Made by a program: the position numbers and the translations under genes. A stretch of 64,000 bases of DNA, taken from contig OZ244973.1 in NCBI GenBank assembly GCA_965222885.1, positions 3,946,141 through 4,010,140 of the forward strand, written 5' to 3'. The DNA is from Terriglobia bacterium. Its GTDB lineage: Bacteria > Acidobacteriota > Terriglobia > UBA7540 > JAPUME01. The notes under the pieces are model-generated. The model was not told where the DNA came from and ran no database searches. It saw only the letters and a program-made list of their open reading frames with translations. Below are positions 28,309 through 47,224 of the stretch, in pieces (within the stretch, counting starts at the first letter, position 1; each line of letters begins with the position of its first letter).

Positions 28309-29997
28309 TCACTGGGACTCGAGTGCCTTCACCACCTCCTCAATTCTAACATCGGCAGTTTTTCCTGTCGAGCGATCCAGAATTTCCGCCAACCCTTGGC
28401 CGAACTTCTTTCGTCCCAGGGTCACCCTGCGGGGGATACCCGTCAGGTCCGCGTCCTTGAACTTGACCCCCGGGCGTTCGGCTCGGTCGTCGAATAGCAC
28501 CTCCACCCCGCCGGCTTGCATCTGCCGATAAAGTTCCTCACCCGCTTGGCGGAGCCCCTCCTGATCCATATTGGCCACCGTGAGGACGACTTCAAAGGGC
28601 GCAATGGGTTGCGGGAGGGCCGTCCCGTCAGCGTCCATATTCTGCTCAACGGCAGCCGTCAGGATCCTCTCAAGCCCAATGCCGTAGGACCCCATAAGAA
28701 GGTGGACCTGTTTACCGGAGGGGTCGAGTACGGTAGCACCCATGGGCTCCGAGTAGCGCCGACCGAGCTGGAATACATGGCCGACTTCAATGGCCTTCGC
28801 AAGGGACACCGGGCGGCCGCAGCGCACGCAGAGGTCACCTTCCCCCACCTCCCTAAGATCGACATATTCAGCCTGAAAGTCTTGGCCAGGAGTAACATAG
28901 CGCAGGTGTGCATCTTTGCGGTTGGCGCCGGTGATCATGTTTCGGCGACCCTGGAGGGCTTCATCGGCGAGGATACGCACCCCCTCCACGCCTACGGGGC
29001 CCAAGTACCCGAGCGGCGCGCTCAGCCATGTTTCCGACTCCTGGGGCGATGCCGGCCGGAAAACGTCCGTTCCCAATGCGCTGCAAAGCTTGGACTCGCT
29101 GAGCTGATGGTCACCCCGCAGCAGCACCAGCACAGGTCGGCTCTCCACGTTGTAAATAAGCGACTTCATCAACCGCGCGGCGGGCTGCCGGGTAAAAGCT
29201 ACCAGATCCTCGATGGTGCGCTTCTCAGGGGTGGAAAACGGTTCCGGCACGCGCTCGGCTGAGTCATCCTCAATCGGGGAGGGCCGCGAGGTGGCCATTT
29301 CCCGATTCGCTGCATACCCGCACGGACACTGCACGACTACATCCTCCCCGGCATCGCTGAACACCACGAATTCGTGCGAAACCGTGCCCCCCATGGGTCC
29401 GGAAGCGGCTTCTACCGCATGGTACTTCAGCCCACAGCGCTCGAAGATACGGCAATAGGCGTCGTAGTGCTTGCGATAGCTGACCTCCATGCCGGCCTGA
29501 TCCAGGTCGAAGGAGTAGGAATCCTTCATCGTGAACTGCCGCATACGCAGAAGGCCCGACTTGGGACGCGGCTCATCGCGGAATTTCTCCTGAATCTGAT
29601 ACCAGAGCTGGGGCAATTGGCGGTAGGAGCGGATCTCACGGCGCGCGATGTCCGTCATGCCCTCCTCATGCGTCAGGGCCAGGCAGAGGGAGCGTTGATT
29701 GCGGTCGTTGAGTCGGAACATGGTGTCGCCCATCACGTCCCACCGCCCGCTTTCCTGCCATAACTCCGCTGGATTGAGCGCCGGCAGGTAGAACTCCTGC
29801 GCCCCGATGGCATCCATCTCCTCGCGGATGATCCGTGCGATCTTTAACAGCGACCTCTGCGCCAGGTAGAGATAGGCATAGACGCCGGCGGCCAACTGGC
29901 GTACGTAACCCGCCCGTAGGAGCAACCGGTGACTGGGCGCCTCGGCCTCCGCCGGTTCCTCGCGGAGAGTCGGTATGAAGATTTTGCTCCAGCGCAT
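28309..29997 (-). CDS. proS: proline--tRNA ligase
   Basis: Class II aaRS motifs (RPKSGLLRMRQFTMKDSYSF, GSYGIG) and an N-terminal FIPTLREEPAEAE. The start is placed at MRWSKIF (29997). Confidence 0.9.
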   Translation of the reverse strand: MRWSKIFIPTLREEPAEAEAPSHRLLLRAGYVRQLAAGVYAYLYLAQRSLLKIARIIREEMDAIGAQEFYLPALNPAELWQESGRWDVMGDTMFRLNDRNQRSLCLALTHEEGMTDIARREIRSYRQLPQLWYQIQEKFRDEPRPKSGLLRMRQFTMKDSYSFDLDQAGMEVSYRKHYDAYCRIFERCGLKYHAVEAASGPMGGTVSHEFVVFSDAGEDVVVQCPCGYAANREMATSRPSPIEDDSAERVPEPFSTPEKRTIEDLVAFTRQPAARLMKSLIYNVESRPVLVLLRGDHQLSESKLCSALGTDVFRPASPQESETWLSAPLGYLGPVGVEGVRILADEALQGRRNMITGANRKDAHLRYVTPGQDFQAEYVDLREVGEGDLCVRCGRPVSLAKAIEVGHVFQLGRRYSEPMGATVLDPSGKQVHLLMGSYGIGLERILTAAVEQNMDADGTALPQPIAPFEVVLTVANMDQEGLRQAGEELYRQMQAGGVEVLFDDRAERPGVKFKDADLTGIPRRVTLGRKKFGQGLAEILDRSTGKTADVRIEEVVKALESQ

Positions 29998-30922
29998 GCG
30001 GATTCCTTTCCGGGAAGCGGAAAATGGCATTGTTCAGGACAACTCCGCCCGTTGTCAAGCTGGCGATCACTCCTGCAGACAGGCGGTATGCAAAATAACC
30101 GGATCACCGCGCAGCCGGGGTTCCCTGCGCGGCAAACACGCTGTACACGTTCAGACATATATATTAATGCGTGACCCCTCACCCAGCGCTGTCTGCCGGC
30201 CAGGCGGACGGCCACTTGTCTATCCCGCCTGTACGGGCAGGCGAGCAGGGAGAGGCAGGCGGGGAAAGGTTTTCGATGGCAAGCCAACGGAGATGCGCGA
30301 TTGTGCCGCCGTCTAAACCTTCAGGATGCTTCCGGGTGAGCCGATTCGGCGGGAGATCGACAAGATGTCGGAAGCAGGTCCCTAATGTAAAGGCGCCGGA
30401 CCGATGCCGTTCGAAACGGAAAAGAACCGTCTGGAGGTGTCGTCGCGCGCGCCGAACACGGCTCGAATGCAGAAAAAGTACTAGATGTTGTGCACGTCTT
30501 GGTTTTCTGTCGTTTTTGCTTGACAGCCGTGTGAGGGTCTTGCGCATACTGGCATCGTAGTAAGAAGCAAGTCGCCGTAGCAGATGTTTTTAGATGAGGG
30601 AGCGGCGGCTAAAAAACTGATCGGGCGCTGCGGACCTCCCCGCTCCGTGGCGTGACGGAGGGCAGCGGTTGGGCGGGGACACCCGCTGCTGCCCCATGAG
30701 AAATCGTACTACCCCACAACCCATTTCCACTCGGCGCACGGGCCTGTCTGCGTGCGACGTACAGGCAGGCGCCGATCATTCCTGAACCCAACCCCAGGCT
30801 CTGCCGCCTCGCAGTACCTTCTCGACTTAGCGCCGGTAGTTTCCCCGGATTTCATCCGGCGGGAGTCGATGCAGGTCCAGACTGCTTGGCCAGAGCCAAA
30901 CTACAAAAAAAAGGAGTTAGCC

Positions 30923-31687
30923 ATGAGAAAATTCTGTTTCAGTCTGTTGTTTCTGACCTTTGTAACTGCCACCATCACCGACGTTCTTCTGGCTCAATAC
31001 GGTGAAGAGTATTGCGTCATCGTCTTGACAGGACAAAACCGCAACCGGACGGTTGCCGGGGCGGTCAATACAGAATGCGAGGGCATCCATAGTAAACCTT
31101 TTGGGAATTGGGGCGTGGCCTCAAATTACGGTCGCATACGAGACAAGGATCAGTTCCGAGGATGGTGGCCCCGGCACACTACAAGCACGAAGAAGCAATG
31201 GAATTCCTGCACCACAAAAAAAGCAAAATATCGGGCGCCAAACTGCACATACTACAGACGCTCTGTCCCTCCCACTCCGCCATATCGTTGCGATAAGCAA
31301 TACTCAAACGACGTCGTCACGCATGGCACGCTGCGATACCGAACTGCGGTTCAGCCCTGCCCTCCGCCCTGGTGGCCGGCGGGTTCTTCCAGCAGCGGCT
31401 GTCGGTGGGTTGGGACCGTGGGTCAGGCCAGCAACCACATGTCCCTCTACGAGCTCGACCCCGGGGGCGGTAACCAGTTGGTCGAAACGCTCTATTTCCC
31501 CGGCACCTCCGTCACGCTCACGGGCTGCACCAAGGAGGAGTGTCCCGAAAAAACAACGGGTTGGGTCCGGATGACGAGTTCCACTTCTTCAACTGCCAAG
31601 GTCGAAGCCGAGTTGCGCATGAAGGCAAGAGCCTACTTTCAGGCTTGCGACTGGTCCTGGACCGAGGGCGGGGGTAGTGGCAACTAA
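30923..31687 (+). CDS. hypothetical secreted Cys/Trp-rich protein
   Basis: AAGGAG RBS 7 nt upstream of the ATG. Signal peptide MRKFCFSLLFLTFVTATITDVLLAQ. About ten Cys in the mature part. No family recognised. Confidence 0.4.
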   Translation: MRKFCFSLLFLTFVTATITDVLLAQYGEEYCVIVLTGQNRNRTVAGAVNTECEGIHSKPFGNWGVASNYGRIRDKDQFRGWWPRHTTSTKKQWNSCTTKKAKYRAPNCTYYRRSVPPTPPYRCDKQYSNDVVTHGTLRYRTAVQPCPPPWWPAGSSSSGCRWVGTVGQASNHMSLYELDPGGGNQLVETLYFPGTSVTLTGCTKEECPEKTTGWVRMTSSTSSTAKVEAELRMKARAYFQACDWSWTEGGGSGN

Positions 31688-31713: not shown

Positions 31714-32640
31714 ATGCGAAACACAAAGCTTATTACCATCCTTGGAAGTGTCGTTTTCCTGAGCCTGACCGTCTCTGCGGTGGCCGCACCGCTGGAGATC
31801 GTGGGCACGCTGCGCAACGTGGACGAGGTGCCGCTCAGTGGAAGGATTACGGTGATCCAGGAGACCTCCAGCGGCGTGACCTTCACTCATCACGAGGTCG
31901 ATAAGACCGGCCTGTTCAAAATGGCCATCGACTCCGAGGGAGAACTGGTGCTTCATGCATCAGCCCCGCAACACCCTGCGGGCGAGCGAGTGATCCCCGC
32001 CGGGACCACCGGGGTGGTGAACGTGGACTTCATCCTGCCCTTGGGCCAGGACGTGCAGGTGCGGGTGGTCGATGACCTGGGACAGGGCGTACCGGGAGCC
32101 GCCCTGCGGGTCCGCTACCACGAGCCCGGCAAACCCCTGCGGCGGGTCGGGTTCGATCACAAGGAGGTCACCGATGGGGATGGGCGTCTGACGCTGCGAG
32201 ACATGGGCATCGAGGTTCCCTTCGTGGTGGACGTTCTGGCCCCTCACTACCCGCCGATCTCTTCCAATCGCACCAAGCTGGGCGAGGGGAAGACCGAAAT
32301 GGAGGACATCGTGTTAGGGAAGCCGGGAGCGACGGTGGTGGTGGAACTGGTCGATAAGGCCGGGGACCCGGTTGCCGATGCTGGGATCAGGCTGCTGGCC
32401 GACCCGGCGGGATATCCCGCCGAGGCGCGGGGTTCCTGGCTGCATCCTTTGGCCTTCCGGCAGCGTGCGGTGACTTCCGCCCAGGGCAGTGCCCGGTTTA
32501 CAGGGGTGCCTCCGGGGCAGGCCGGCGTCTTCCACGGTTTTCTCCCAACTCCTTCCTTTCGTTGCTATTACACGGTTTTGGGGCTTCTGCTTTCGCTCGC
32601 AACGCCTATGGTTAGCCCGCTTGAGGGGCGAGTTTTCTGA
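31714..32640 (+). CDS. CarboxypepD_reg-like repeat protein, 3' end replaced by repeat S1 (probably truncated)
   Basis: Signal peptide plus several Ig-like carboxypeptidase-regulatory repeats (G.V.D..G.PV.GA.V). The last ~38 codons are a read-through of the S1 repeat that starts at 32527. Confidence 0.5.
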   Translation: MRNTKLITILGSVVFLSLTVSAVAAPLEIVGTLRNVDEVPLSGRITVIQETSSGVTFTHHEVDKTGLFKMAIDSEGELVLHASAPQHPAGERVIPAGTTGVVNVDFILPLGQDVQVRVVDDLGQGVPGAALRVRYHEPGKPLRRVGFDHKEVTDGDGRLTLRDMGIEVPFVVDVLAPHYPPISSNRTKLGEGKTEMEDIVLGKPGATVVVELVDKAGDPVADAGIRLLADPAGYPAEARGSWLHPLAFRQRAVTSAQGSARFTGVPPGQAGVFHGFLPTPSFRCYYTVLGLLLSLATPMVSPLEGRVF

Positions 32641-32692: not shown

Positions 32693-32918
32693 ACTTTTTT
32701 GCAGTAATAGTTTTTAATCTGCAATGGCCCTGCTCGTCGTAAGGATGCCTCAACAAGCCGGCCGTGAGCCTAATGAATCTTTGGACCCGCTCTCGTGAAC
32801 GAGCTTCGCGCTCAGGTGAACTATGGCGAGTCCAACACGGCAAATTACCCTCTTATTGCAGGTCTTCATTTTGCCGCAATTCCTCATCTTCAAACTGGAC
32901 AAAATATCCGGGACCCCT

Positions 32919-32970
32919 CAACGGCGTATGGACTAACATAGAAAAGGGGACGATAACTAGGGGCAGATCA
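32919..32970 (+). mobile_element. IS3/IS407-like right-end remnant
   Basis: caacggcgtatggactaacatagaaaaggggacgataactaggggcagatca parallels the orfB stop plus right IR of the IS at 53907..53958 (caacggcttatggactaacataacaaagtggaccaacaaccgggggcaggtca). Confidence 0.55.
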
Positions 32971-33072
32971 CGGTAGCGCGCCAACGACATCGTGGCCAAC
33001 CCAGGTGTCATTCGAGTATGTCGCGGCGGACCTGGTTGGTAGCTGCGCATCTTTATTAAAATAAGCCTGAGC

Positions 33073-34185
33073 ATGAATACTCATATTCGTGAAATCTCCA
33101 TCGGCGCTGGTCGCGTGTTGAAGGCAACGCCAGTTCTGGATACCTATTGGCGGTTTGCGCAGGTACGGCAGAGTATTTTTCACAGACGGGTGCTAGGCGA
33201 GGCGCCGCCTTGGACCGACGATCCAGTTCTCGCTGAGCACCGATTCACGAACGCGTACCGTGCCGCTGATCGCGTGAGCCAGTTCCTGATCCGCGACGTG
33301 ATTTATTCGGAACTAGAGACACCCGAGGAAGTGTTTTTTCGCACGCTCTTCTTCAAGATCTTCAACCGGATCGAAACGTGGAACTCTGTCCGCAATGTTG
33401 TTGAGCAGATCACCTGGAATGATTTCGACTTCGAACGATACGCTCAGACTCTGGATGCGATCCGTGCGAATGGCACGAGCATTTATTCAAACGCTTACAT
33501 CATGCCCTCACCACCCTTTGGGGAACAACGCAAGCACCGCAACCATCTTCGTCTTTTAGAACAGATGATGCGCGATCGGTTGCCCGATAGGATTGCATCT
33601 GCGTCATCCCTGGAGGCTGTATTCCTGGCTCTGCAGCAGTACCCGTCGTTCGGGCGATTTCTGGCTTTTCAGTTTGCTATTGACCTGAACTACAGCACAA
33701 TCTGCGACCACTCTGAAATGGATTTTGTAGTTGCGGGACCCGGTGCGTCGGATGGAATCAGGAAATGTTTCGTCGACACTGCGGGCCTGACGGATGAAGA
33801 AGTCATACGGGTTGTCACTGAGCGCGCCAGCGAGGAATTCGCGCGCCTAGATATTGAGTTTGACGACCTATGGGGGCGCCCCCTTCAGCTAATCGACTGC
33901 CAGAATCTGTTTTGTGAGGTCGGCAAGTACGCAAGGGTCGTGCATCCTGAGTATCAAAGTGTTTCTGGTCGAACCCGAATCAAACAACGCTTCTCGCCGC
34001 TATCAAAGGCTCTGCCTCAGTGGTATCCGCCGAAGTGGGGAATAGAGCCCCCGATCACGCCAGCGGCAACTGAGAGTAATAGCTGCGCTATGGGAGGCGA
34101 ACCGCCGTTCGGCCTCGAAATCTTCGCTGGCCCCCGTCGGAGATCCAATCATTCTCGTGAGGCGACAGCGATAACCCAGTCCTGA
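33073..34185 (+). CDS. putative DNA base hypermodification family protein (5-hmdU-DNA-kinase helical-domain / aGPT-pyrophosphorylase-like); tentative
   Basis: 370 aa. The N-terminal pattern YWRFAQVRQSIFHRR..G..PPWTDDPVL..HRFTNAYRAADRVSQFLI and the later FLAFQFAIDLNYS match my memory of bacterial proteins annotated as nucleotide kinase domain / putative DNA base hypermodification proteins. No search was run. Confidence 0.35.
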   Translation: MNTHIREISIGAGRVLKATPVLDTYWRFAQVRQSIFHRRVLGEAPPWTDDPVLAEHRFTNAYRAADRVSQFLIRDVIYSELETPEEVFFRTLFFKIFNRIETWNSVRNVVEQITWNDFDFERYAQTLDAIRANGTSIYSNAYIMPSPPFGEQRKHRNHLRLLEQMMRDRLPDRIASASSLEAVFLALQQYPSFGRFLAFQFAIDLNYSTICDHSEMDFVVAGPGASDGIRKCFVDTAGLTDEEVIRVVTERASEEFARLDIEFDDLWGRPLQLIDCQNLFCEVGKYARVVHPEYQSVSGRTRIKQRFSPLSKALPQWYPPKWGIEPPITPAATESNSCAMGGEPPFGLEIFAGPRRRSNHSREATAITQS

Positions 34186-34450
34186 TCCAGCAAGAGGACG
34201 GTATGGACCGCACATCCGCCGCGGGCCACCCGCGTAGCGACAGGCGTCCAAGAGTGTGGCAACGTAAAATGCTCTGGCAGTGTGGTCAGTTCGACTTGTT
34301 CGAAGTCGATAGATTGTTGATCCTCTACTCTCAAGGCCTTGTAGACCGCCTCCTTCATGGCGAAATGGGCAGTGATGAAGAGCGTAGCTCTAGCACCGTC
34401 AACCTGCTTTAGCCGCGAGCGCTCCGCAGTAGTCAGTACTCGCTCCGCTA

Positions 34451-35570
34451 GTGGACTGTCGCAAAGTAACTTTATCTATGGAGAGGGCGTCTATACAGTA
34501 TGCCCTTTCAAAGCGAACCGTTCGTGTTGAGCCAACAGCAACGATCCGAACTCGAGGAGGTCGCCCGTTCGCAATCGCTGCCCGCCGGCTTTGTCTTACG
34601 CGCTCGAATCATCGCGTTACTCGCCGACGGCCTCTCCTACGCCGCCGTCGCCGACAAACTGGATTGCTCCACACCGACCGTCGGGAAATGGAAGAAACGC
34701 TTCCTCGAACACGGACTCGACGGACTGGAAACCCACCGTCCCGGGCAACCACCCTCGAAACTCACCGCCCGCTTGCGTGCCAAAATCCTCAATGCCACCC
34801 GCCGCCAGCCTGGCGACGGTTCGACCCACTGGTCCTGCCGCAAACTCGCCAAAGAACTCAGCATCAGCAAAGACTTGGTTCATCGTGTTTGGCGGGAAGC
34901 CGATCTCAAGCCGCATCGGTTGGAGCGCTACATGGCCTCCAACGACCCCGACTTCGAGCGCAAAGCTGCCGACATCATCGGTCTCTACCTCGATCCGCCG
35001 CGCCATGCCGCCGTGTTCTGCGTGGACGAAAAGACCGCTATGCAAGCGCTCGACCGTCGCGACCGCGTCTTGCCGCTGTCCCCTGGACGCGCCGAGCGGC
35101 ATGGTTTCGAGTACAAGCGCAACGGCACTCTCTCCCTCTACGCCGCCTTAAACACCAAGACTGGGCAGGTGCATGGGAAGACCGCCGCGCGTCACACCAG
35201 CCAGGACTGCGTCGAGTTTCTCGGTGAGGTCGTCGCCCGCTGCGAGCCCGACCAGGAGATTCACCTCATCCTCGACAACCTCTCGGCTCACAAGACCAAG
35301 CAGGTGGCAGCGTTCCTCGAGCGGCACCCCAACGTCGCCTTACACTTCACGCCGACTTACTCGTCGTGGCTGAACCAGGTCGAGTTGTGGTTTTCTAAGG
35401 TGCAACGCGACGTCATTGCCCGCGGCGTGTTCCCCTCCACCACCGATCTCGCCCGCAAACTCCGCCGCTACATCAACGCCTACTCGAAAGACGCCAAGCC
35501 TTTCCGCTGGAAATACTCCAGGCCCTCCCGCCGCATCCGCCATGGTAAAACTATCTCTGCGACAGTCCAC
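34451..35570 (+). mobile_element. IS630-family insertion sequence (copy 1)
   Basis: Terminal IRs gtggactgtcgcaaagta / gtggactgtcgcagagat. Flanking TA duplication at 34449-50 and 35571-72. The transposase stop codon uses the target TA. Confidence 0.85.
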
Positions 35571-35573
35571 TAG
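34500..35573 (+). CDS. IS630 family transposase
   Basis: 357 aa. N-terminal HTH region and a DDE core (FCVDEKTAMQALDR...ILDNLSAHKT...HFTPTYSSWLNQVELWF). Confidence 0.85.
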   Translation: MPFQSEPFVLSQQQRSELEEVARSQSLPAGFVLRARIIALLADGLSYAAVADKLDCSTPTVGKWKKRFLEHGLDGLETHRPGQPPSKLTARLRAKILNATRRQPGDGSTHWSCRKLAKELSISKDLVHRVWREADLKPHRLERYMASNDPDFERKAADIIGLYLDPPRHAAVFCVDEKTAMQALDRRDRVLPLSPGRAERHGFEYKRNGTLSLYAALNTKTGQVHGKTAARHTSQDCVEFLGEVVARCEPDQEIHLILDNLSAHKTKQVAAFLERHPNVALHFTPTYSSWLNQVELWFSKVQRDVIARGVFPSTTDLARKLRRYINAYSKDAKPFRWKYSRPSRRIRHGKTISATVH

Positions 35574-36097
35574 TTTCTGATCGGTCTCCTCCGCACACTC
35601 AACGTCAATCCCGACCCCCTCAGCGACAGTGGCCACCGCCAGCGTCAACGGTCCCTTTCGACTGATCGAACCGGCAAAGCCTAGTGGGACGATAGGTGCA
35701 CCCGAGGCCGCCGAGAGGATTGGGACGCGTGGAGCCGCAAGATGCGCGAGCGCTGTGGTCAGACACATCCGTCCGGCGATCCATCTACGACGATAGTCCG
35801 GCTCAAGTGCAGAGGCGTGTGTCAGTTCCGTTGGATGGAGTGTCTGGAGGGTTCGAGCCGTTGGGTTGTCTGGGCATATAGCGCAAATAAGCGTCCCAGC
35901 AGGACAGCCGGCAAGCTCTTCTGGGGTCCAGTACGGACGTGATCTGCCGAGAATTCCGGGAGGTGGGGGGGTAAGGGGCACAATGGATGCTACCAGATTC
36001 CAAGATGTTAGAAAACAAAAACTATTCCCTTGGCAAATGTTTGTTTATCGAACATAATGATGTTATTCGGTTCGACTGAATTGATCGGAGGTATTTA

Positions 36098-36493
36098 GTG
36101 AACTCGCTTCCTGTGGACAAGGTGCAGTTCGACGCTAAAGCACCTGAATTGAAGGCCCTCACGCGCGATTGGGCGGACCGGGAATGTACGCCCTTTAACG
36201 AGGCAGTCCGTCGCGCGGCCGGTCTTCCGAAAGGCAGCAGCGGTTCGATCTGGGAGATGCCTTCCATCGATTCGAAGCGCGTCGTCTCATTGCTCGTAGA
36301 ACTCGAGCCGGTTTTGAGCTGCAAGCTGCCATTGACGCTAGTCAAGCGTGGTGGCTACATTAGCACGGACGACCTTGTCGCCGACTTGATGCCTAAGATT
36401 CGCGGGTATTGTTCAGAGCCGTCGGCTCCGACCGCAAACCCACAGGATGGAGGCGCTACCGCGGTAGTGACCACCAGTTCGCCCATTTTCTAG
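36098..36493 (+). CDS. carrier-protein-like small protein (possible phosphopantetheine attachment site); tentative
   Basis: GTG start with a GGAGG RBS. The segment WEMPSIDSKRVVSLLVELEPVLSCKLPLTLVKRGGYISTDDLVADL aligns by eye with the PCP/ACP core (GGxDS-L..v.L...le...g..LP...lf...T...La..l). It is divergent from the PPTase gene. Confidence 0.35.
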   Translation: MNSLPVDKVQFDAKAPELKALTRDWADRECTPFNEAVRRAAGLPKGSSGSIWEMPSIDSKRVVSLLVELEPVLSCKLPLTLVKRGGYISTDDLVADLMPKIRGYCSEPSAPTANPQDGGATAVVTTSSPIF

Positions 36494-36502
36494 GGGGACA
36501 CC

Positions 36503-36850
36503 ATGGACACTGAAACAACGACTCTCGGTGCTCGACTTCGCGAGGCACGCGAGTATTTCCGGCTATCACAGGATGAAGTGGCCAGAGTAATCGGACTACC
36601 AAGGGCCGCGATCTCCCTAATCGAGAATGGGCGGCGCAAGGTCGCAGCGCTTGAGTTGAAGAAGTTCGCGGATTTGTACCAGCGACCCGTTACCGATTTC
36701 ACTGGAGATGTCGAAGTAGCCAGTCCAGTTCGGGAGACAGTTCAGCACTTGACGCGCGTCGCTACAAAGCTGGCAGAGGCTGACCAAGCTGAGTTGGTCC
36801 GGTTCGCTGAATTCCTTGGCTCGAGAGCAGCGAAGAAGCGGGAGGCCTGA
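36503..36850 (+). CDS. XRE-family helix-turn-helix transcriptional regulator
   Basis: LGARLREAREYFRLSQDEVARVIGLPRAAISLIENGRRKV is a canonical Cro/C1-type HTH. Confidence 0.85.
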   Translation: MDTETTTLGARLREAREYFRLSQDEVARVIGLPRAAISLIENGRRKVAALELKKFADLYQRPVTDFTGDVEVASPVRETVQHLTRVATKLAEADQAELVRFAEFLGSRAAKKREA

Positions 36851-36852
36851 CG

Positions 36853-37845
36853 ATGGCCGCGCGCGAAGCAATTCTCGAAGGCACTCAGGCAGCGCAACGC
36901 CTTCACGCTCAACTTGGTACACGCGCAGCCGTGGAACAAGGGGGGCTTTCGTATATCGATGTGTTTGCTGTTGCGATGGAATTGGGCGCCGTGTTGCTCT
37001 TTCGCAGGCTGGAGGGAATGTTGGGAGCATACCTCGCCGATTCCGGGATACCCGGAATTATTGTTTCGACGCAGCGGAGCCTCCACATCCAGCGCTTTAC
37101 AGTGGCCCACGAGATCGGCCATCTATTCATGCGTCACGACTTGAGCCTGGATCAGCAAGTTGGCCTCTGGAGGGGCTCGTCAAGAGACTTGGGAGAGGTT
37201 GCCGCTGATGCATTCGCTTCCGAGTTCATGTTGCCTCGATGGTTGTACGTTCACCACTCAGCTCGGCAGCGATGGGACAGTGCCGCTCTTCAGGATCCTC
37301 GCTTGGTTTATCAACTCTCGCTGCGCCTTGGCGCGAGCTATGACGCAACCTGCTGGGGCCTCAAAGGACATCGAATTCTAAAGCCACACGAGATGGCCAA
37401 GCTGTGGGATGTTGAGCCGAAGGAACTGAAGGTTGCTGCGCTTGCCGGCATGGCAGACCGAATAGATCCGTGGGCGGATGTCTGGGTGATTACGGAGGCT
37501 GACAACGGTTTGAGATTCCAGGGTGGCCCGAACGACATCGTTGTGTTTAGGATCCCGGAACGGGCGTCCGCTGGCTATCTCTGGGACGAATCACAACTAT
37601 GGAAAGACGGATTTGAATTGCTGGCCGATGATCGCGAAGAAGGAGATGAAGAGGAGTGTGGCAGTACGCTCACACGTGTGCTGGTGACGCGCGTGAGGGA
37701 ATCGTGCGAATGCCAAGTCTCACTCTCCGAGCGTCGCCCATGGCAACCGGACGAATCAGTCGGTAAGCTCGCCATCGCGTTCGACATGCAAGGTAAAGAG
37801 GATGGCCTGCCCAGGCTGGCTAGGAAGGCGATCGTCGCTGCATGA
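36853..37845 (+). CDS. ImmA/IrrE-family zinc metallopeptidase fused to a C-terminal chagasin-like (MEROPS I42) cysteine-peptidase-inhibitor domain
   Basis: HEIGH at aa 86-90 (nt 37108-37122) followed by AADAFASEFMLP. The C-terminal ~110 aa (nt ~37465-37797) align by eye with chagasin: NG.....G..V.F.IPERASAGYLW (cf. NPTTGFAW), ECGSTLTRVLVTRV (cf. GAGGTEHFHVTV), SERRPWQP (cf. YMRPWTGP). Confidence 0.7.
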   Translation: MAAREAILEGTQAAQRLHAQLGTRAAVEQGGLSYIDVFAVAMELGAVLLFRRLEGMLGAYLADSGIPGIIVSTQRSLHIQRFTVAHEIGHLFMRHDLSLDQQVGLWRGSSRDLGEVAADAFASEFMLPRWLYVHHSARQRWDSAALQDPRLVYQLSLRLGASYDATCWGLKGHRILKPHEMAKLWDVEPKELKVAALAGMADRIDPWADVWVITEADNGLRFQGGPNDIVVFRIPERASAGYLWDESQLWKDGFELLADDREEGDEEECGSTLTRVLVTRVRESCECQVSLSERRPWQPDESVGKLAIAFDMQGKEDGLPRLARKAIVAA

Positions 37846-38483
37846 GTATCATCGTCGATGTCGACTTGCGAAGCAAGCTCGGCGACACGCGTGATCAACG
37901 ACAGAGACCGACCTGCTTGGCATTCGCCGTGTCGGCCGCTCACGAGGCCAGTCGAGTGTCGAACGACTATCTCTCTACCGAGTTCCTCTTTTTTAGCGGT
38001 GCGCAGCGATCGCACCGCGATCCAAACCGTGGCCTTAGTAGAACCGCAGTCGCGGAAGCCCTGCGGGAAGATGGGCAACCTTGCGAGGCTGCGTGGCCGT
38101 ATCGGGTGGAACCGCCTGCCGCCGCGAATTGGAAGGCGCCGGAGAATTGCGAGCCCCTTCACAGGGCGACGGTCACATTTACCTCCGGGACCTTGACCGA
38201 GGTTGGACAGACGCTTCGCATCGGGGTGCCGGTAGTGCTAGTAGTATCGCTCACGATGGCAATGTATGTGCCCGATGCGAACGGAATTGTTCGGTCTCGT
38301 CAGAGTGACGTCACCACGACGAGCCGCCACGCATTGTTGGCGGTCGGTTTAGGACATGACAACGACGGTGAGTACATCTTGGTGCGCAACAGCTGGGGAG
38401 CGCGCTGGGGACTGCTGGGTCATGCTTGGTGTCACGGTTCCTGTTTCGTCGGCCGACTCCATTGGACAGGTACGATTTCCTAG
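37842..38483 (+). CDS. papain-like C1 family cysteine peptidase (no signal peptide)
   Basis: DQRQRPTCLAFAVSAAHE (oxyanion Gln plus catalytic Cys25), SRHALLAVGLG (His), YILVRNSWGARWG (Asn-Ser-Trp-Gly). ATGA overlap with the upstream inhibitor-fusion gene. Confidence 0.75.
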   Translation: MSIIVDVDLRSKLGDTRDQRQRPTCLAFAVSAAHEASRVSNDYLSTEFLFFSGAQRSHRDPNRGLSRTAVAEALREDGQPCEAAWPYRVEPPAAANWKAPENCEPLHRATVTFTSGTLTEVGQTLRIGVPVVLVVSLTMAMYVPDANGIVRSRQSDVTTTSRHALLAVGLGHDNDGEYILVRNSWGARWGLLGHAWCHGSCFVGRLHWTGTIS

Positions 38484-38495
38484 AGAGGCACGCAG

Positions 38496-39314
38496 ATGAA
38501 GCTGATCGCTGCTGATACTCTGGCACAAGCCTGGCTACAGGGTTGTGGTCACCTTCGCGACCTAGCTGGATGGGTGGATACGACTGTGGTGTTGCAGATC
38601 GCTGAGCCTACACTGGTTCGTTCCCAGGACCGGGCGGTCGCGGAGAGACTTAACGAGTATCTGGTAAGCCACGGCAGGTTTAGCAATCACACTGTGGCCG
38701 AAACGATTTTCCCAGGATACGAGTACGTACACAGGGGCGTTAAAGGCGTATACGAAGTGTATCCAGACGAGATCTATCCGAGAATCAAAGGCCACAAGGA
38801 TATGCGTCGGTGGGGAGCGTACGCATACAGGCTGTTGCGCCGGAGGGATGAGAGTGGAAAGGTCTACAATCCGCTGTCACAATGCATCAAAAAGATGAAG
38901 GACAAGCAACCAAAACGTGCAGCCTATGAGATGGGTTTGGGCTTTGACCTCGCGGTGTATGACGACAATGCAGACAGGGAGTCCAGGATGGGAGGGCCTT
39001 GCCTCAGCCATCTCAGTTTCAAGTTCATCGAGAAGAGAATTCAGCTGACCGCGCTCTATCGTTCGCACTACTATGTGCAGCGAGCGTACGGGAATCTGCT
39101 CGGGCTTGCTAGGTTGCAGTCGTTCGTCGCTTACCAGGTCGGTGTCGAGCCTGGACCGCTCGTGTGTCATTCGACAATGGCCGTCCTGGAGCACGGAAAG
39201 CCGTGGGGCTGGTCGAAAGGCGAGGTTTCGCCTCTTCTCAGCGAATGTGAGGCCCTTATGAAAGGCCAGACCCCGACCGCCTTTGTCGCGCAGTCAATGG
39301 GCCATCATGCCTGA
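38496..39314 (+). CDS. thymidylate synthase / dNMP hydroxymethylase-fold protein
   Basis: GGPCLSHLSFKFIEKRIQLTALYRSHYYVQRAYGNLLGLARLQSFVAYQVGVEPGPLVCH parallels the ThyA core [39 protein letters not shown]...G......GD.H. The catalytic-Cys context is retained. Confidence 0.6.
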   Translation: MKLIAADTLAQAWLQGCGHLRDLAGWVDTTVVLQIAEPTLVRSQDRAVAERLNEYLVSHGRFSNHTVAETIFPGYEYVHRGVKGVYEVYPDEIYPRIKGHKDMRRWGAYAYRLLRRRDESGKVYNPLSQCIKKMKDKQPKRAAYEMGLGFDLAVYDDNADRESRMGGPCLSHLSFKFIEKRIQLTALYRSHYYVQRAYGNLLGLARLQSFVAYQVGVEPGPLVCHSTMAVLEHGKPWGWSKGEVSPLLSECEALMKGQTPTAFVAQSMGHHA

Positions 39315-40554
39315 ACCCAAGAGCACGAGTGGTGTTGTATTGCCCTCCGATATTACGTGGGACAGTGGCGTGCACCTTCTTGAATATCAGCGGGCCGTTC
39401 GCGAAACTGACCGTCTGCCACAAGACGATTTAGGCACTCCGGTGCTAGGTCTATTCGGCGAGGTTGGCAGTTTGCTGTCTGTCGTCAAGAAGAGGAAGCG
39501 TGACGCCGTAGCCTATGTTGGCTATGACGCCGCGATCATTGAGGAACTCGGCGATGCGCTTTGGTACTTCACCTGCATTGCGAATCGCGTAGCGCTAGAC
39601 CTGTCTGTCCTCGCGCAGGGGGTGTTTTGCGATGCGAGTGACCGGGATGAGTGCCAGGCGGATGAGTTTGGCACGTGGGGTGACGTCCAGTCCGCTCGTC
39701 CGCTGGCCGAAGACGAGGATCTGTTCGCCTCGATGAGCCTCCTCGCTGGCCTGACGGGGAAACTCGTTGGCGGCTTGCGCGGTGGACTTGTCGAAGGCCG
39801 GGAGCGGTTGTCTGGAGACATGAGCGCTGTTCTTCGATCGTTGATTGGGTTCGCCACCGCAGCTGACCTCGATCTGGACGTGGCAGCTCGCCAAAACCTC
39901 GAGAAGATCTTCAGTCGGTATCCTCGGGAACTCAAATACCCGCCGCTCCCGGACGATAACGTGACGTTACACGAGCGGCTTCCGCGTCGATTCGACCTGT
40001 TCGTTGGCGAACACGATGTCAATGGCAAAACCTACGTGATGCTGATCTGCAACGGCGTGATCATAGGAGACCGTGTGACCGACAACAAAGCTGAGGAAGA
40101 CGACTATAGGTTCCACGATGTCTTTCACGTTGCCTATGCAGTTCATTTGAGTTGGTCTCCGATCCTGCGCGGGCTGTTCCGGGTAAAGCGAAAGAGCATG
40201 CCTGGGGTTGACGAGAACGAAGACGGGGCGCGCGCCGGTCTCATAGAGGAAGGCGTTGCTACGTTTATTTTTGGTCGTGCCCTTGAACAGAACCTGTTCG
40301 AAGATCTAGAGCACCTTGACTTCGATCTACTGAAACTAGTTAGAGGTTTCGTTCGTGGGTTCGAGGTCGAGCGCTGTGCGCTGTGGCAGTGGGAGCGAGC
40401 GATCCTTGATGGATTCAAGGTGTACCGCGAGTTCAAGAAGAACCGCCGCGGATATGTAGTTGCGGACCTAGTCGCCCACACCATCGAGTTTAGGGCAGCA
40501 GGCCGGGACGAGGACGGACTCAATTCTGTTGCAATCGTGGGTCGCCGCGAATAG
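39307..40554 (+). CDS. MazG-like all-alpha NTP pyrophosphohydrolase domain protein with a large uncharacterised C-terminal half
   Basis: LGLFGEVGSLLSVVKKRKRD......EELGDALWYFTCIANRVALDL is a MazG/HisE-type EExxE/D helix pair. ATG 39307 overlaps the upstream stop (ATGCCTGA). An alternative in-frame start lies at 39283. Confidence 0.6.
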   Translation: MPEPKSTSGVVLPSDITWDSGVHLLEYQRAVRETDRLPQDDLGTPVLGLFGEVGSLLSVVKKRKRDAVAYVGYDAAIIEELGDALWYFTCIANRVALDLSVLAQGVFCDASDRDECQADEFGTWGDVQSARPLAEDEDLFASMSLLAGLTGKLVGGLRGGLVEGRERLSGDMSAVLRSLIGFATAADLDLDVAARQNLEKIFSRYPRELKYPPLPDDNVTLHERLPRRFDLFVGEHDVNGKTYVMLICNGVIIGDRVTDNKAEEDDYRFHDVFHVAYAVHLSWSPILRGLFRVKRKSMPGVDENEDGARAGLIEEGVATFIFGRALEQNLFEDLEHLDFDLLKLVRGFVRGFEVERCALWQWERAILDGFKVYREFKKNRRGYVVADLVAHTIEFRAAGRDEDGLNSVAIVGRRE

Positions 40555-40627
40555 CGACAAATGGTGATTATGAGGGGCTCGTTCGGCCCCGGAGGTCAAC
40601 GCTTAGGATGTGTAGAAAGGCACCTCT

Positions 40628-41443
40628 GTGAGCTTCTGGAGTGGGGAAACTCTTGCTGCGCGGCTTCCTGGACTGGTCGAGCCGTTCAAAGAGTCAAAGA
40701 TCGACTGTGCTGCGTACACGCTCCAAGTTGGCCCAGAAGTGTATGTCTCCCCCTCCATCGTCGACGATGCCTCAACAACGAAGGTGCGGCTGAGAGAGGG
40801 CCAGTCCTTCGCTATACCTGCGGGTCAGTTTGCGTTCTTACTGACAGAAGAGCGAATTCGCGTACCAAGTTCCGCGTTGGCATTCATCTCCATCAAGGCG
40901 CGCATTAAGTTTAAGGGTCTTGTGAATGTGTCGGGATTCCACGTTGATCCTGGATATGAGGGCCGACTCATCTTCTCGGTGTTCAACGCAGGTCCCGCAC
41001 CTGTCCATCTTGCTCGGGGCGACGACTGTTTCCTGATGTGGTTCGCCAGCCTGGATGTGTCCTCGGAAGAGATCAAAAAGATGCCTGGTTTCGATGCCAT
41101 TCCGTCTAGCCTGATCAATCCCATCGCTGGGGAGATTCAGTCTTTCGCGGGACTGCTTGAGAAGATTCGCTCGACAGAAAAACGGATAGATGTGATCGAC
41201 AAGGCCCAATCGAAGATATTGGCCATTGCCACTCCCATCTTCGCGGCGTTATTGACACTGGCGATCATGCTTGGATTTCGTGCTTGTGAGGCTCCACCGA
41301 CTGTTTTACAGGTTGCGCCAGTCGGCGGATCATTGCCCCAACTCTCGGACCCTGGTCCATCATCGGCTTCGCAACCTGGGGCACCGGACGCAGCACCTCC
41401 ACAGGGCCAGGCTCCACCAGACCAGTCGGTGGCCGCCCCTTAG
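40628..41443 (+). CDS. dCTP deaminase/dUTPase-superfamily (Dcd-like) protein with a C-terminal TM helix and Pro/Gln/Ala-rich tail
   Basis: The N-terminal 145 aa follow the Dcd pattern (I.PF....I....Y.L.VG.E......L..G..F.IPAGQFA.LLTEE.I.VP......I..K.....GL.N.SGFHVDPGYEGRLIFSVFNAG..PV.L..GD....MWF). ILAIATPIFAALLTLAIMLGF (nt 41216-41278) is a predicted TM helix. Confidence 0.65.
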   Translation: MSFWSGETLAARLPGLVEPFKESKIDCAAYTLQVGPEVYVSPSIVDDASTTKVRLREGQSFAIPAGQFAFLLTEERIRVPSSALAFISIKARIKFKGLVNVSGFHVDPGYEGRLIFSVFNAGPAPVHLARGDDCFLMWFASLDVSSEEIKKMPGFDAIPSSLINPIAGEIQSFAGLLEKIRSTEKRIDVIDKAQSKILAIATPIFAALLTLAIMLGFRACEAPPTVLQVAPVGGSLPQLSDPGPSSASQPGAPDAAPPQGQAPPDQSVAAP

Positions 41444-41696
41444 GAGCAAGAGGGACGCGACTGACGCCCAAAGTATATCTTGGCCTCGCAGGCCTCAAGG
41501 CGATCATTCAGGCTGCATCCGCCTAGTAGTACCGGCTTGTGTTATTGGTTGGCCCGGCAGGATTCTAAAAGAGCGACCTGCTCAAGGCCCCGGCCGAGGG
41601 ACGTTGCCGAGTGGGCGGTGTGAAATTGGTGCTGATTAGAATGGTTGACGCCGATCGATTTGTTAAACGGCCAAGCTTTGTCAAGTTAAGATATTG

Positions 41697-41827: not shown

Positions 41828-42870
41828 GACCAGACCGATCTTTTGTACCAATCCTAGGGAGAGAGTTTACATCACAGCCTGGGGCTGCGAAATCGGTTCT
41901 GGGAGAAGAAATGGATTACCGGCCCCCGGCGCCGGGGGCCGGTAATCCAGCGCCGAGTGCGGTCTCCGGGTGTTGTATTCCTCCCGCCATTGCTCCATCA
42001 CGATCTGGGCCTCCTGCAACGAGTAGAAGATCTCCCCGTTCAGGCATTCATCCCGCAACTTCCCATTGAAACTCTCACCATACCCGTTCTCCCATGGACT
42101 ACCTGGTTCGATGTACAACCTTCCGGTCCCGAGATTCCCCAGCCATTGGCGCAACTTCCGGGCGACGAACTCCGGGCCGTTATCGGATCGAATGTGCTCC
42201 GGGATCCCTCGCCACAGCATCACCTCCGACAACGTCTCGATCACCTCCAGGCTGCCCATCCTTCGCTCCACTCGGATCGCCAGACATTCCCGCGTATACT
42301 CGTCCAGCAGCGTCAGCAACCGCAGCGTCCTTCCATCGTGGGTTCTGGCGCTAACAAAGTCATAGCTCCAGACGTGGTTGCGATGTTCCGGGCGCAGTCT
42401 CACACAGGAACCGTCGTTCCGCCAGAGTCGTCTTCGCGGCCGTTGTTTTGGCGGCCCTTTCAAACCTTCCCCACGCCAGATTCGCTGCACCCGATCCTTG
42501 CCTACCGACCAGCCTGCGTTCCGCAGCTACGCCGTGATTCGTCGATAGCCGTACCGCCCGTATTGCGCCGCCAGAGCGACCACCGCCCGGGTCAGCTCAT
42601 CCTCGTCCAGTCGATGAATCGGCTGGTATCGTTGCGTCCCCCTCCATGGCCCCAGCAGCCGGCAGGCGTGCCGTTCCGACAGGCCATGCTTCCCCCGTGC
42701 CCGCTCCACCGCACAACGTCGCCGCTCAGGGCTCAGAAGTTTCCCGGGGCCACCTCCTGCAAGACTTGCTTCTCCAGCGACAACTCCGCCACCAGCCGCT
42801 TCAACCGCGTGTTTTCCTTCTCCAACTCTTTCAGCCGTTTCGCCTGATCCAGCTTCGTTAGTGGCTCAGG
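41828..42870 (-). mobile_element. degenerate IS3-family (IS407-like) element: right IR + orfB with in-frame TAG + 3' end of orfA; left part missing
   Basis: Terminal tgaccagaccgatcttttgtacca. orfB is split by TAG at 42527-42529 (..YGYRRITA*LRNAGW..). The slippery GGGAAAC is at 42739-42745 (minus). Homology to the intact copy's orfA stops near 42860-42880, and AT-rich unrelated sequence follows. Confidence 0.75.
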
Positions 42871-46896: not shown

Positions 46897-46953
46897 ACCT
46901 CCAGAGGCCAAAGGTTGCCCATTAATATATCGCTTATTACCGGGACAGTACAC
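45805..46953 (-). mobile_element. IS630-family insertion sequence (copy 2)
   Basis: IRs gtgtactgtcccggaaata / gtgtactgtcccggtaata. TA duplication at 45803-04 and 46954-55. Confidence 0.85.
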
Positions 46954-47224
46954 TAGCCAGCCGGATGTCTTATTCCGATGATCTTCTTCATCAACTTCAA
47001 GAAGTACGGCTGCCAGATAGGAGAGAAATGCGGCCAGAGGTTTTGTGAGGTCTCGGGGTTCCGTTTCCATATCAAGCCAGAATATCCACGCCATAGCAGA
47101 CAGTCCTGAGTGGGCCAGGCGAGCCTGGGGATGAGGCGAGCCTGTACCCCCTTGCTGGCTCACACTGGGCTGAGGTCTGCTATGGCAAGTAGTCACCTTA
47201 TCCTGGCCTCAAGGGGGGTTTCCA

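Follow-up and report, generated by a model that had tools for sequence, protein, structure and literature searches.

An ImmA-type metallopeptidase carrying a chagasin-like domain and coupled to a papain-like peptidase in a mobile nucleotide-enzyme module

Background

Why would a metallopeptidase of the ImmA/IrrE type end in a domain that resembles chagasin, and why would its gene run directly into that of a papain-like cysteine peptidase? The question is raised by a stretch of 64,000 nucleotides (nt) from a Terriglobia bacterium (Acidobacteriota; GenBank assembly GCA_965222885.1, contig OZ244973.1, positions 3,946,141 to 4,010,140 of the forward strand), here called the window. A sequence-only reading of this DNA had picked out two open reading frames (ORFs) that overlap in an ATGA, and both are indeed present in the sequence. 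The first (36853..37845, + strand, 330 amino acids, aa) encodes a fusion of an M78 metallopeptidase with an I42 domain, hereafter ImmA-I42, and the second (37842..38483, + strand, 213 aa) a C1A papain-family cysteine peptidase that has no pro-region, hereafter C1. The same reading had taken the two genes for a free-standing protease/anti-protease pair, in which loss of ImmA-I42 would release C1 and derepress the operon at the same time.

The analysis described here keeps the anatomy of that proposal and changes its setting. ImmA-I42 and C1 are best explained as the control module of a five-gene operon within a nucleotide-modifying, defence-like mobile module, forming a switch of the CapH/CapP type to which an I42 clamp has been added; we put the probability of this reading at about 0.55. 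Its parts (an M78/XRE switch, an I42 domain, a C1A peptidase and a set of nucleotide-modification genes) are each of a known kind. The anatomy is solid and the distribution wide; the mechanism we infer.

The metallopeptidase and its chagasin-like domain

The N-terminal part of ImmA-I42 is an ImmA/IrrE-type peptidase by every measure used. Pfam matches Peptidase_M78 (PF06114) to aa 42-167 with E 8.8e-12 and 45.3 bits (the Pfam cut-offs are 22 bits for Peptidase_M78, 27.2 for Inhibitor_I42 and 20.7 for Peptidase_C1), and the PADLOC model for capP matches with E 9.6e-17 over a region confined to aa 32-157. The HEIGH motif that had been noticed in the sequence, together with a glutamate downstream of it, lies at aa 86-90, and H86, E87, H90 and E115 are invariant among 30 homologues of 41-73% identity, the set from which residue conservation in this protein is quoted throughout. 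CapP itself consists of a peptidase (residues 1-141), a helix-turn-helix (HTH) region (142-182) and a GAF domain (182-288), with H97, H101 and E128 as zinc ligands and E98 as the catalytic residue (bioRxiv 10.64898/2026.05.16.725639), and in a profile alignment the HExxH and E115 of ImmA-I42 fall on this motif. An AlphaFold2 model of the whole protein reached a mean per-residue confidence (pLDDT) of 89.8 and a predicted template-modelling score (pTM) of 0.89, and its first ~200 residues, comprising the peptidase and a helical region, retrieved IrrE (3dti), PprI (8sln) and CapP (7t5t) in Foldseek with a probability of 1.00. These alignments to CapP and IrrE span ~180-190 columns; aa 207-311 match chagasin instead. 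Searched against PDB sequences as a single sequence, ImmA-I42 gave a marginal match to IrrE (E 0.19) and none to an I42 inhibitor.

The C-terminal part of the protein is therefore an I42 fold where the CapP/IrrE subfamily has its GAF domain: the I42 domain occupies the GAF position of the IrrE/CapP core and retains residues of the three loop signatures. A second departure from CapP lies within the peptidase, where no conserved cysteine was found between HExxH and E115 in the 30 homologues, so the cysteine switch of CapP is missing. The corresponding loop (aa 96-115, window 37138-37197) is free of cysteine, H95, S98 and D100 are invariant, and aa 104-109 form the sole low-confidence stretch of the model; it may be an autoinhibitory loop of a different kind. 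ImmA-I42 may thus work like CapP, and it is not an orthologue of CapP or IrrE.

I42 inhibitors block C1A peptidases through three loops, L2, L4 and L6, whose canonical motifs are NPTTG[FY]xW, GxGG and RPW; these motifs can also be seen in the aligned PDB sequences. In ImmA-I42 the domain (aa ~207-311, window 37471..37785, + strand) presents E236..G241-Y-x-W244 as L2, G270 as L4 and R295-P-W297 as L6. A profile of the family, compared with solved I42 inhibitors, matched EhICP2 (E 1.7e-9), the Pseudomonas aeruginosa ICP (5e-5), amoebiasin-1 (1e-3) and chagasin (6e-3), and the alignment was in register at all three loops, with ssaGylW on PSTGYAW/PTTGFRW, iGge on VGFP/VGSG and rrpW on RPW. The three chagasin-like motifs that had first been proposed thus stand in register with those of inhibitors of known structure. 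The domain had been placed in the last ~110 aa; the domain is real and its position slightly different, since it is followed by a conserved 19-residue tail (aa 312-330, window 37786-37842) that ends in -AA. Most homologues of ImmA-I42 have a precomputed PF09394 match.

The structural comparison could have returned something other than an Ig-like chagasin fold; what it returned was chagasin-like. The nine best Foldseek matches in the PDB were chains of EhICP2 and chagasin (E 1.5e-6 to 1.1e-5, target TM 0.76-0.85), superposed with a root-mean-square deviation of 2.1-2.9 A over 107-115 columns, in a part of the model where pLDDT is ~89-95, with ~71 in the L4 region. Conservation follows the same loops. 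G241, W244, G270 and W297 are invariant and E236, Y242, R295 and P296 are at least 90% conserved, so that L6 keeps its R-P-W, L2 keeps G-Y-x-W and L4 one invariant glycine; nothing else in the domain is conserved as well, even at ~29% overall identity.

The papain-like peptidase

The product of the second gene matches Peptidase_C1 (PF00112) with E 3.5e-12 and 47.3 bits. Its catalytic residues, noted earlier as the papain set of Gln, Cys25, His and Asn-Ser-Trp-Gly in a protein devoid of a signal peptide, form an intact set: across 80 orthologues Q19 and C25 are found in all, H163 in 78, N183 in 77 and S184 and W185 in 76 each (2 gapped), and all six residues are invariant in a second set (n=35). 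The model of C1 has a pLDDT of 95.8 and superposes on xylellain and on cathepsins S, L and K with TM values of ~0.78, xylellain (3ois) being the top match (E 7e-13, query TM 0.80). The conservation of both active sites, that of the metallopeptidase and that of C1, and of the inhibitory loops between them points to purifying selection on the pair.

What sets C1 apart from typical members of its family is where it begins. Residue 11 aligns with residue 11 of mature fibroinase, so the protein starts at the mature-domain boundary, and no N-terminal hydrophobic stretch is visible in the window sequence. A pro-region is found in none of the 120 C1 homologues listed, and those of full length have 211-233 aa with PF00112 as their sole domain. 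C25 is the only cysteine conserved at 90% or more, in the 80 orthologues as in the second set of 35; by the usual papain numbering, the three disulfide pairs of papain are therefore not conserved. C1 thus has neither the pre-pro-enzyme organization nor the conserved disulfides of the papain family. Because of its mature-boundary start, the length of its relatives and the conservation of C25 alone, C1 is predicted to be a cytoplasmic enzyme with no pro-peptide or conserved disulfides, and it belongs to an atypical, mature-only clade of the C1A fold.

Coupling and distribution of the pair

A search for other fusions of this kind beside C1 genes had been proposed as a check, and it shows the pair to be widespread. 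In a scan of one genome per species, relatives of the ImmA-I42 fusion were found to be encoded in at least 416 species-representative genomes. The best 80 of these were taken as a sample of loci, which was seeded through ImmA motifs and is biased to that extent; they come from Alpha-, Beta- and Gammaproteobacteria, Myxococcota, Acidobacteriota, Nitrospirota, Planctomycetota, Gemmatimonadota and Binatota. A C1 sequence lies directly downstream of ImmA-I42 in all 80, and it is intact wherever the contig permits, except in three. As estimated from where the ORFs and matches start, most of these loci have -4 nt (ATGA-type), or no more than ~8 nt, between the ImmA-I42 stop and the C1 start. The reverse sample, seeded with C1, was small (six proteins, nine places), and here an M78 gene was directly upstream of all six C1 proteins (40-98% identical) wherever the contig extends.

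Furthermore, 21 plasmids carry the fusion, 11 of them conjugative, and one of the 21, from the haloarchaeon Haloarcula marina, has the same gene order at 29% identity. A chance association or an artefact is rejected, since the pair is conserved across hundreds of genomes. A phage origin is not supported either, since none of the phage records and only one of 35 viral-contig matches carries the fusion.

One locus would depart from the rule that an intact C1 is accompanied by an intact inhibitor. The same C1 occurs on two contigs (L131 2954-4001 and L132 1306-2322); in the long-read copy ImmA is called at 252 aa and followed by a 289-nt gap, and the other contig encodes an intact 338-aa ImmA-I42. 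The short call is probably a sequencing frameshift; if real, it would make this the sole intact C1 whose inhibitor is truncated.

When the I42 domain was searched exhaustively by itself, 253 clusters at 50% identity were obtained, most of them ~330 aa long with the domain at the C-terminus. A few clusters have 453-485 aa, and among five of these scanned with Pfam an HTH was found in four and an M78 domain in three; the fifth long protein (P0280) had only a weak tblastn match to XRE. Such natural HTH-M78-I42 triple fusions provide a Rosetta-stone link, as predicted from their domains, between the I42 domain and the XRE/ImmA switch. A variant of the module (L091 3199-10315 / L092) encodes a 453-aa ImmA-I42 with an XRE-like N-terminal extension, followed by C1 and a thymidylate-synthase-like gene; on the opposite strand it has a canonical ThyA (PF00303), a protein with an HMUDK_hel domain and a 735-aa metallophosphatase, and it lies beside a phage-type integrase.

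Organization of the operon

The two genes stand in a tightly packed row on the + strand. The first gene (36098..36493, + strand) encodes a putative small carrier protein of 131 aa resembling acyl carrier proteins (ACPs), the second (36503..36850, + strand) an XRE-family HTH repressor of 115 aa, like CapH, ImmR and DdrO, which is the presumed substrate of ImmA; ImmA-I42 and C1 follow, and the fifth gene encodes a thymidylate-synthase-like enzyme of 272 aa (38496..39314, + strand), after which the row goes on with genes for MazG-MazG_C and a dCTP-deaminase-like protein. Read from the sequence, the spacings are +9 nt between the ACP-like and XRE genes, +2 between XRE and ImmA-I42, -4 (GC ATG A) between ImmA-I42 and C1, and +12 between C1 and the thymidylate-synthase-like gene. 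At the third junction the ImmA-I42 stop in ...GTC GCT GCA TGA overlaps the C1 start codon, whose ATG is at 37842. These five genes are the operon core, and the row is predicted to form one operon with translational coupling.

A candidate promoter/operator (36030..36075, + strand) lies in an AT-rich gap upstream of the first gene. It consists of a sigma-70-like TTGGCA-17-CATAAT, with 10/12 consensus matches in a scan, overlapped by the imperfect inverted repeat TCGAACATAAT N6 ATTCGGTTCGA; consensus matches are what identifies it. The XRE protein matches Pfam HTH_3 with E 7e-12 and the PADLOC capH model with E 3.4e-8 over its full length, and an XRE gene is present in every one of the 80 loci whose contig extends to its position. 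The tie to an XRE switch that had been proposed for ImmA-I42 is thereby strengthened, by the XRE gene 2 nt upstream, the capH match and the triple fusions.

A model for the control module

In the established paradigm ImmA, IrrE and CapP cleave a neighbouring XRE repressor upon a DNA-damage signal (bioRxiv 10.64898/2026.05.16.725639). The simplest way to model the present locus is along the same lines: the XRE protein would repress the operon, and ImmA would cleave it on a signal, as CapP, IrrE and ImmA do. The I42 domain would bind the co-translated C1 at about 1:1 through L2, L4 and L6, keep it latent and so stand in for the pro-peptide that C1 lacks. More speculatively, C1 would be freed by a signal-induced rearrangement of the fusion or by its turnover through the -AA tail, as through a ClpX-type degron. 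Free C1 might then kill or arrest the cell, or activate the nucleotide-modifying enzymes, and the latter might plausibly make or deplete pyrimidine nucleotides (of the 5-hm-dU type) in an inducible anti-phage response.

The tail has some features that bear on the turnover step. Of 116 database homologues of ImmA-I42, 86 end in -AA, as do those of 66 of 78 loci, an ending that resembles the ssrA/ClpX C-terminal degron. Together with the loss of C1 from loci in which the inhibitor is kept (see below), it suggests a labile inhibitor and a stable protease. At loci in which the module includes a uracil-DNA glycosylase (UDG) gene (L005, L031, L033 and others), the -AA ending is shared by C1 (tail '...DVS...AAA') and by the thymidylate-synthase-like protein.

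The order of events that had been suggested, in which ImmA-I42 is degraded and the operon derepressed as a consequence, runs backwards, since cleavage of the repressor is what ImmA would be expected to perform. Because the metalloprotease is the cleaving partner in ImmA, IrrE and CapP, destruction of ImmA-I42 would stabilise the repressor; and because trigger-induced destruction removes the XRE-cleaving enzyme, release of C1 and derepression of the operon would not automatically be simultaneous.

Several observations weigh against the control-module reading. The window protein scores 24.7 bits with Inhibitor_I42 (PF09394; E 2.9e-5, aa 227-301), below the Pfam cut-off, and its L2 has none of the canonical NPTT residues, only G-Y-x-W remaining. 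In IrrE and CapP the peptidase and the C-terminal GAF domain together form a groove that binds single-stranded DNA (bioRxiv 10.64898/2026.05.16.725639); ImmA-I42 has no GAF domain, and its equivalent of the switch loop has no cysteine. The -AA ending may partly encode the ribosome-binding site of the next gene. The ACP-like carrier and a 4'-phosphopantetheinyl transferase (PPTase) gene in the module could mean that C1 serves biosynthesis or processing and does not kill, and in the window the PPTase gene is split by an insertion sequence (IS) of the IS630 family, so that this copy of the module may not be fully functional.

An elaboration of the model can be offered as a tentative and rather doubtful one. 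It pictures a relay of two proteases, in which a CapP-like sensor with a chagasin clamp would remove the XRE repressor and release the latent papain-like protease, and C1 would then activate, or clear the way for, the thymidylate-synthase-like, MazG and UDG or HMUDK enzymes, possibly via an ACP-tethered intermediate. Were it correct, ImmA-I42 and C1 would provide the first case of an I42/C1A pair that works inside prokaryotic cells in a defined role, and a candidate evolutionary source of the protozoan chagasin inhibitors.

Alternative explanations

The first alternative stays closest to the sequence-only reading. It holds that the locus is a free-standing toxin-antitoxin or addiction pair like RosmerTA, with C1 as the toxin, the XRE protein and ImmA-I42 as antitoxin and autoregulator, and the neighbouring genes as unrelated cargo. 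In RosmerTA the antitoxin RmrA combines an HTH with an M78 peptidase, and RmrT is the toxin. PADLOC models of RmrA do match the XRE and ImmA proteins, and single-chain HTH-M78-I42 versions exist, as noted above. Plasmid occurrence and the conserved degron-like -AA C-terminus would suit an antitoxin, and no sampled C1 was found without an M78 gene upstream. The pattern of decay is also the asymmetric one that is typical of such pairs, in that the ImmA-I42 gene is intact where C1 has been lost: C1 is reduced to remnants in L087 and L088, truncated in L025 and disrupted or partly deleted in L028 and L030.

The single-chain proteins of four loci can be described more closely here. They have 458-485 aa (L087 5029-6794, L088 6001-7562, L089 and L090) and look like orphan antitoxins, to judge from what follows them: in L087 a C1 remnant of 120 aa that lacks Gln19, in L088 one of 34 aa, in L089 none detected, and in L090 a short ORF that matches the C1 N-terminus just before the contig ends. 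One of these orphan-like loci adjoins CRISPR cas1/cas2 and another a bacterial ubiquitin-like (E1/E2/JAB) system.

Against a free-standing pair stands the constancy of its company. In 74 of the 80 loci the next gene after C1 is the thymidylate-synthase-like one, a small ORF lies directly upstream of XRE in 74 of 80 and on the archaeal plasmid (it is ACP-like in the 28 sequences aligned), and a MazG-MazG_C gene is found within ~3 kb of the cassette, on either strand, in 66 of 80. This conservation of partners extends from Proteobacteria to the haloarchaeal plasmid, and the view of the neighbours as unrelated cargo is disfavoured because such conservation is not expected of cargo. The sample of orphan inhibitors is small, moreover, and the ImmA-seeded loci are biased by the route of their discovery. 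The two-gene pair proposed at the outset is in fact embedded in a conserved operon with ACP-like, XRE and thymidylate-synthase-like genes, accompanied by MazG-MazG_C and by UDG or by HMUDK_hel and a dCTP-deaminase-like gene. Since its operon partners are constant, C1 appears to serve a larger system, and it need not be a simple toxin. The toxin-antitoxin explanation, plausible though it is, we regard as unlikely.

The second alternative takes the company of C1 more literally. C1 would be a processing or biosynthetic enzyme of a nucleotide-modification pathway, which either matures a protein of the module or uses its cysteine in concert with a phosphopantetheinylated carrier, and I42 would do nothing but time or limit its action. 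This idea draws on the first gene of the operon. Among 28 aligned members of its family a 'DS[LK]' motif with Ser59 and a GGY are invariant; the family profile matches ~50 PDB chains of acyl carrier proteins (best E 7.5e-4) and aligns Ser59 with their phosphopantetheine site, and PP-binding is detected in 4 of the 28 members. Counterparts lie at L081 6268-6603 and L082 6318-6650, and the protein is annotated 'hypothetical' everywhere. It draws also on the PPTase genes that flank the cassette in the window, in the relative L086, on the Haloarcula plasmid and in ~8 other loci, and on the place of C1, which is always between the regulator and the thymidylate-synthase-like enzyme.

The PPTase gene of the window lies on the - strand, divergent from the operon. 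Its N-terminal part (35340..35981) matches Pfam 4PPT_N with E 1e-10, and its C-terminal remnant (34149..34358) is 41% identical to the PPTase of L001 and contains a 'KEAVYKAL' stretch, which we take to be the PPTase motif. Between them lies the IS630-family insertion (34453..35565, + strand; Pfam DDE_3 and HTH_23), 1.1 kb long with a transposase ORF at 34500-35573 and blastn breakpoints at 34452 and 35566; it is foreign to the system and absent from L086, which has an uninterrupted ACPS-domain gene at the insertion point.

Several considerations make a processing role improbable. C1A enzymes are peptidases, and we know of no member that acts on carrier-protein thioesters. A PPTase is missing from the vicinity of most UDG-type loci, and a stoichiometric inhibitor mounted on the protease of a transcription switch would be an unusual control for a maturation step of the housekeeping type.

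The last alternative, that the I42 fold is a mere structural or sensory substitute for GAF, a beta-sandwich that binds a ligand or partner and leaves C1 independent or as a co-protease for XRE, can take support from the position of the domain, from the confident packing of I42 against the peptidase core at the pTM quoted above and from the lost NPTT and sub-threshold Pfam score, but it is very doubtful, given that the residues defining the three inhibitory loops are what the domain conserves best and that a C1A peptidase, of the class that I42 proteins are known to inhibit, accompanies it in every sampled locus without visible decay, with conserved translational coupling, which would not be expected of a mere sensor.

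The mobile module and its surroundings

The limits of the module were drawn by blastn between the window and L086, a relative at 98% identity. The shared module covers 32915-41639 at 96% identity; the mobile module, of ~7.6 kb, comprises the operon with the MazG-MazG_C, dCTP-deaminase-like, HMUDK_hel and PPTase genes. Next to it in L086 are a type I restriction-modification system and Phd/YefM antitoxin genes; elsewhere the neighbours are integrases, or the locus is carried by a conjugative plasmid.

The thymidylate-synthase-like protein is a divergent one. It matches NCBIfam TIGR03283 (thy_syn_methano) with E 3.4e-13, below the cut-off of that model; no Pfam domain matches it, and its profile has no meaningful sequence match in the PDB. 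C169, R189 and other residues are invariant across 28 homologues. A difference of 1 nt shifts the frame near codon 234 between the window gene and that of L086 (10655-11605); the window copy, whose frame keeps the conserved C-terminal motif, looks intact, and L086 would carry a frameshift or an assembly error.

The MazG nucleotide pyrophosphohydrolase fused to MazG_C (39283..40554, + strand; Pfam MazG_C E 2.9e-71, MazG E 5e-5) has an uncertain start codon, and its relative in L086 is called ~50 codons shorter. MazG has alternative partners in the different loci, either a family-4-type UDG (~43 loci) or HMUDK_hel, to which a dCTP deaminase and a PPTase are at times added. In the window the partner is the HMUDK_hel protein (33073..34185, + strand), which contains the helical domain of 5-hydroxymethyldeoxyuridine (5-hmdU) DNA kinase (Pfam PF18723, E 7.8e-108) and is an accessory gene of the module; it adjoins the cassette in ~35 of the 80 loci, and NCBI names its relatives 'putative DNA base hypermodification protein'. 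The last gene of the shared module encodes the dCTP-deaminase-like protein (40628..41443, + strand; Pfam DCD E 5.4e-14, NCBIfam dCTP_deam E 5e-18), which has a C-terminal extension of ~130 aa, unusual for the family, with a hydrophobic, transmembrane-like segment (ILAIATPIFAALLTLAIMLGF) and a Pro/Gln/Ala-rich tail. The composition of this neighbourhood is that of a nucleotide-modification gene set of the 5-hmdU type, whose chemistry is predicted.

The island that contains the module lies downstream of the housekeeping genes for PBP1 (25464-28067) and ProRS (28309-30030). It includes two uncharacterised ORFs (30752-31687, which has no Pfam match, and 31714-32640, which matches CarboxypepD_reg) and mobile-element genes, namely a fragment of an IS3-type integrase (41867-42490) and a second IS630-like transposase (45802-47196).

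Relation to known systems

Like CapH/CapP, IrrE(PprI)/DdrO of Deinococcus and ImmR/ImmA of ICEBs1 and prophages, the present system has an XRE gene directly upstream of an M78 gene with HExxH and a downstream glutamate. The likeness to CapH/CapP goes further, in the PADLOC matches to capH and capP, in the IrrE/PprI/CapP fold and in the pair heading a candidate defence operon; the differences are the replacement of GAF by I42, the absence of the switch cysteine and the second protease encoded immediately downstream. The inhibitor domain shares with chagasin, EhICP1/2 (amoebiasins) and the P. aeruginosa ICP an Ig-like fold, the L2 G-[YF]-x-W, the L4 glycine and the L6 R-P-W, and its partner is likewise a C1A peptidase of cathepsin-L-like fold. 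In contrast to these inhibitors, it is fused to the C-terminus of a metallopeptidase, cytoplasmic, and provided with a predicted target in the same operon; its L2 has no NPTT, a 19-residue -AA tail follows the domain, and its inhibition of C1 is a prediction. C1 in turn has the catalytic set of xylellain, its best structural match, and of other bacterial C1A peptidases, whereas its clade consists of the mature domain only, with no pro-region, signal peptide or conserved papain disulfides.

RosmerTA and the COG2856/Xre pairs resemble the locus in that 15 PADLOC RmrA models match XRE or ImmA, in that single-chain HTH-M78(-I42) proteins exist and in the potentially harmful enzyme downstream. The candidate toxin is here a C1A peptidase with a dedicated inhibitor domain, however, and there are five genes with nucleotide-metabolism partners rather than two.

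The enzymes of the module recall the pyrimidine (thymidine) hypermodification sets of phages and the DS-4 'NTTI' system of Escherichia coli, through the thymidylate-synthase-like, HMUDK_hel, MazG-MazG_C, dCTP-deaminase-like and UDG genes and through the context of defence islands or mobile elements. DS-4, found with DefensePredictor, consists of a thymidylate synthase, a kinase, HMUDK_hel, TIR and Nmad2, the first and third of which it shares with the present module, and has been validated experimentally as anti-phage; the same work predicted a defensive role for sets with MazG, MazG_C and UDG (PMC13092281). The front end of XRE, ImmA-I42 and C1, and the ACP-like carrier, are absent from the described sets examined, and the thymidylate-synthase-like protein is too divergent for Pfam PF00303.

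The fusion had been thought undescribed. It is not new to the databases, in which hundreds of proteins combine PF06114 and PF09394 under the NCBI names 'ImmA/IrrE family metallo-endopeptidase' or 'protease inhibitor I42 family protein', and it does appear new to the literature: no paper describing the fusion, the obligate C1 partner or the five-gene core was found, an earlier mention in comparative genomics not being excluded, and searches that combined chagasin with ImmA, antitoxin, anti-phage or COG2856 returned nothing relevant.

Conclusions

XRE/ImmA switches of the CapH/CapP kind are coming to be seen as regulators of immune operons in bacteria generally. If the control-module reading is true, the sensor domain of such a switch has been exchanged for an inhibitor aimed at the product of the next gene, and induction of the operon is coupled to the release of a latent protease, a wiring that has not been described so far. 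I42 inhibitors and C1A peptidases, whose part in bacteria and archaea is little understood, would also gain a definite function inside the cell, and the synthesis of a C1A enzyme that lacks a pro-peptide would be accounted for. The system marked by the pair is compact and horizontally mobile, is present in at least 416 species and is mostly annotated 'hypothetical'; its predicted gene content makes it a strong candidate for an anti-phage mechanism that acts through nucleotides.

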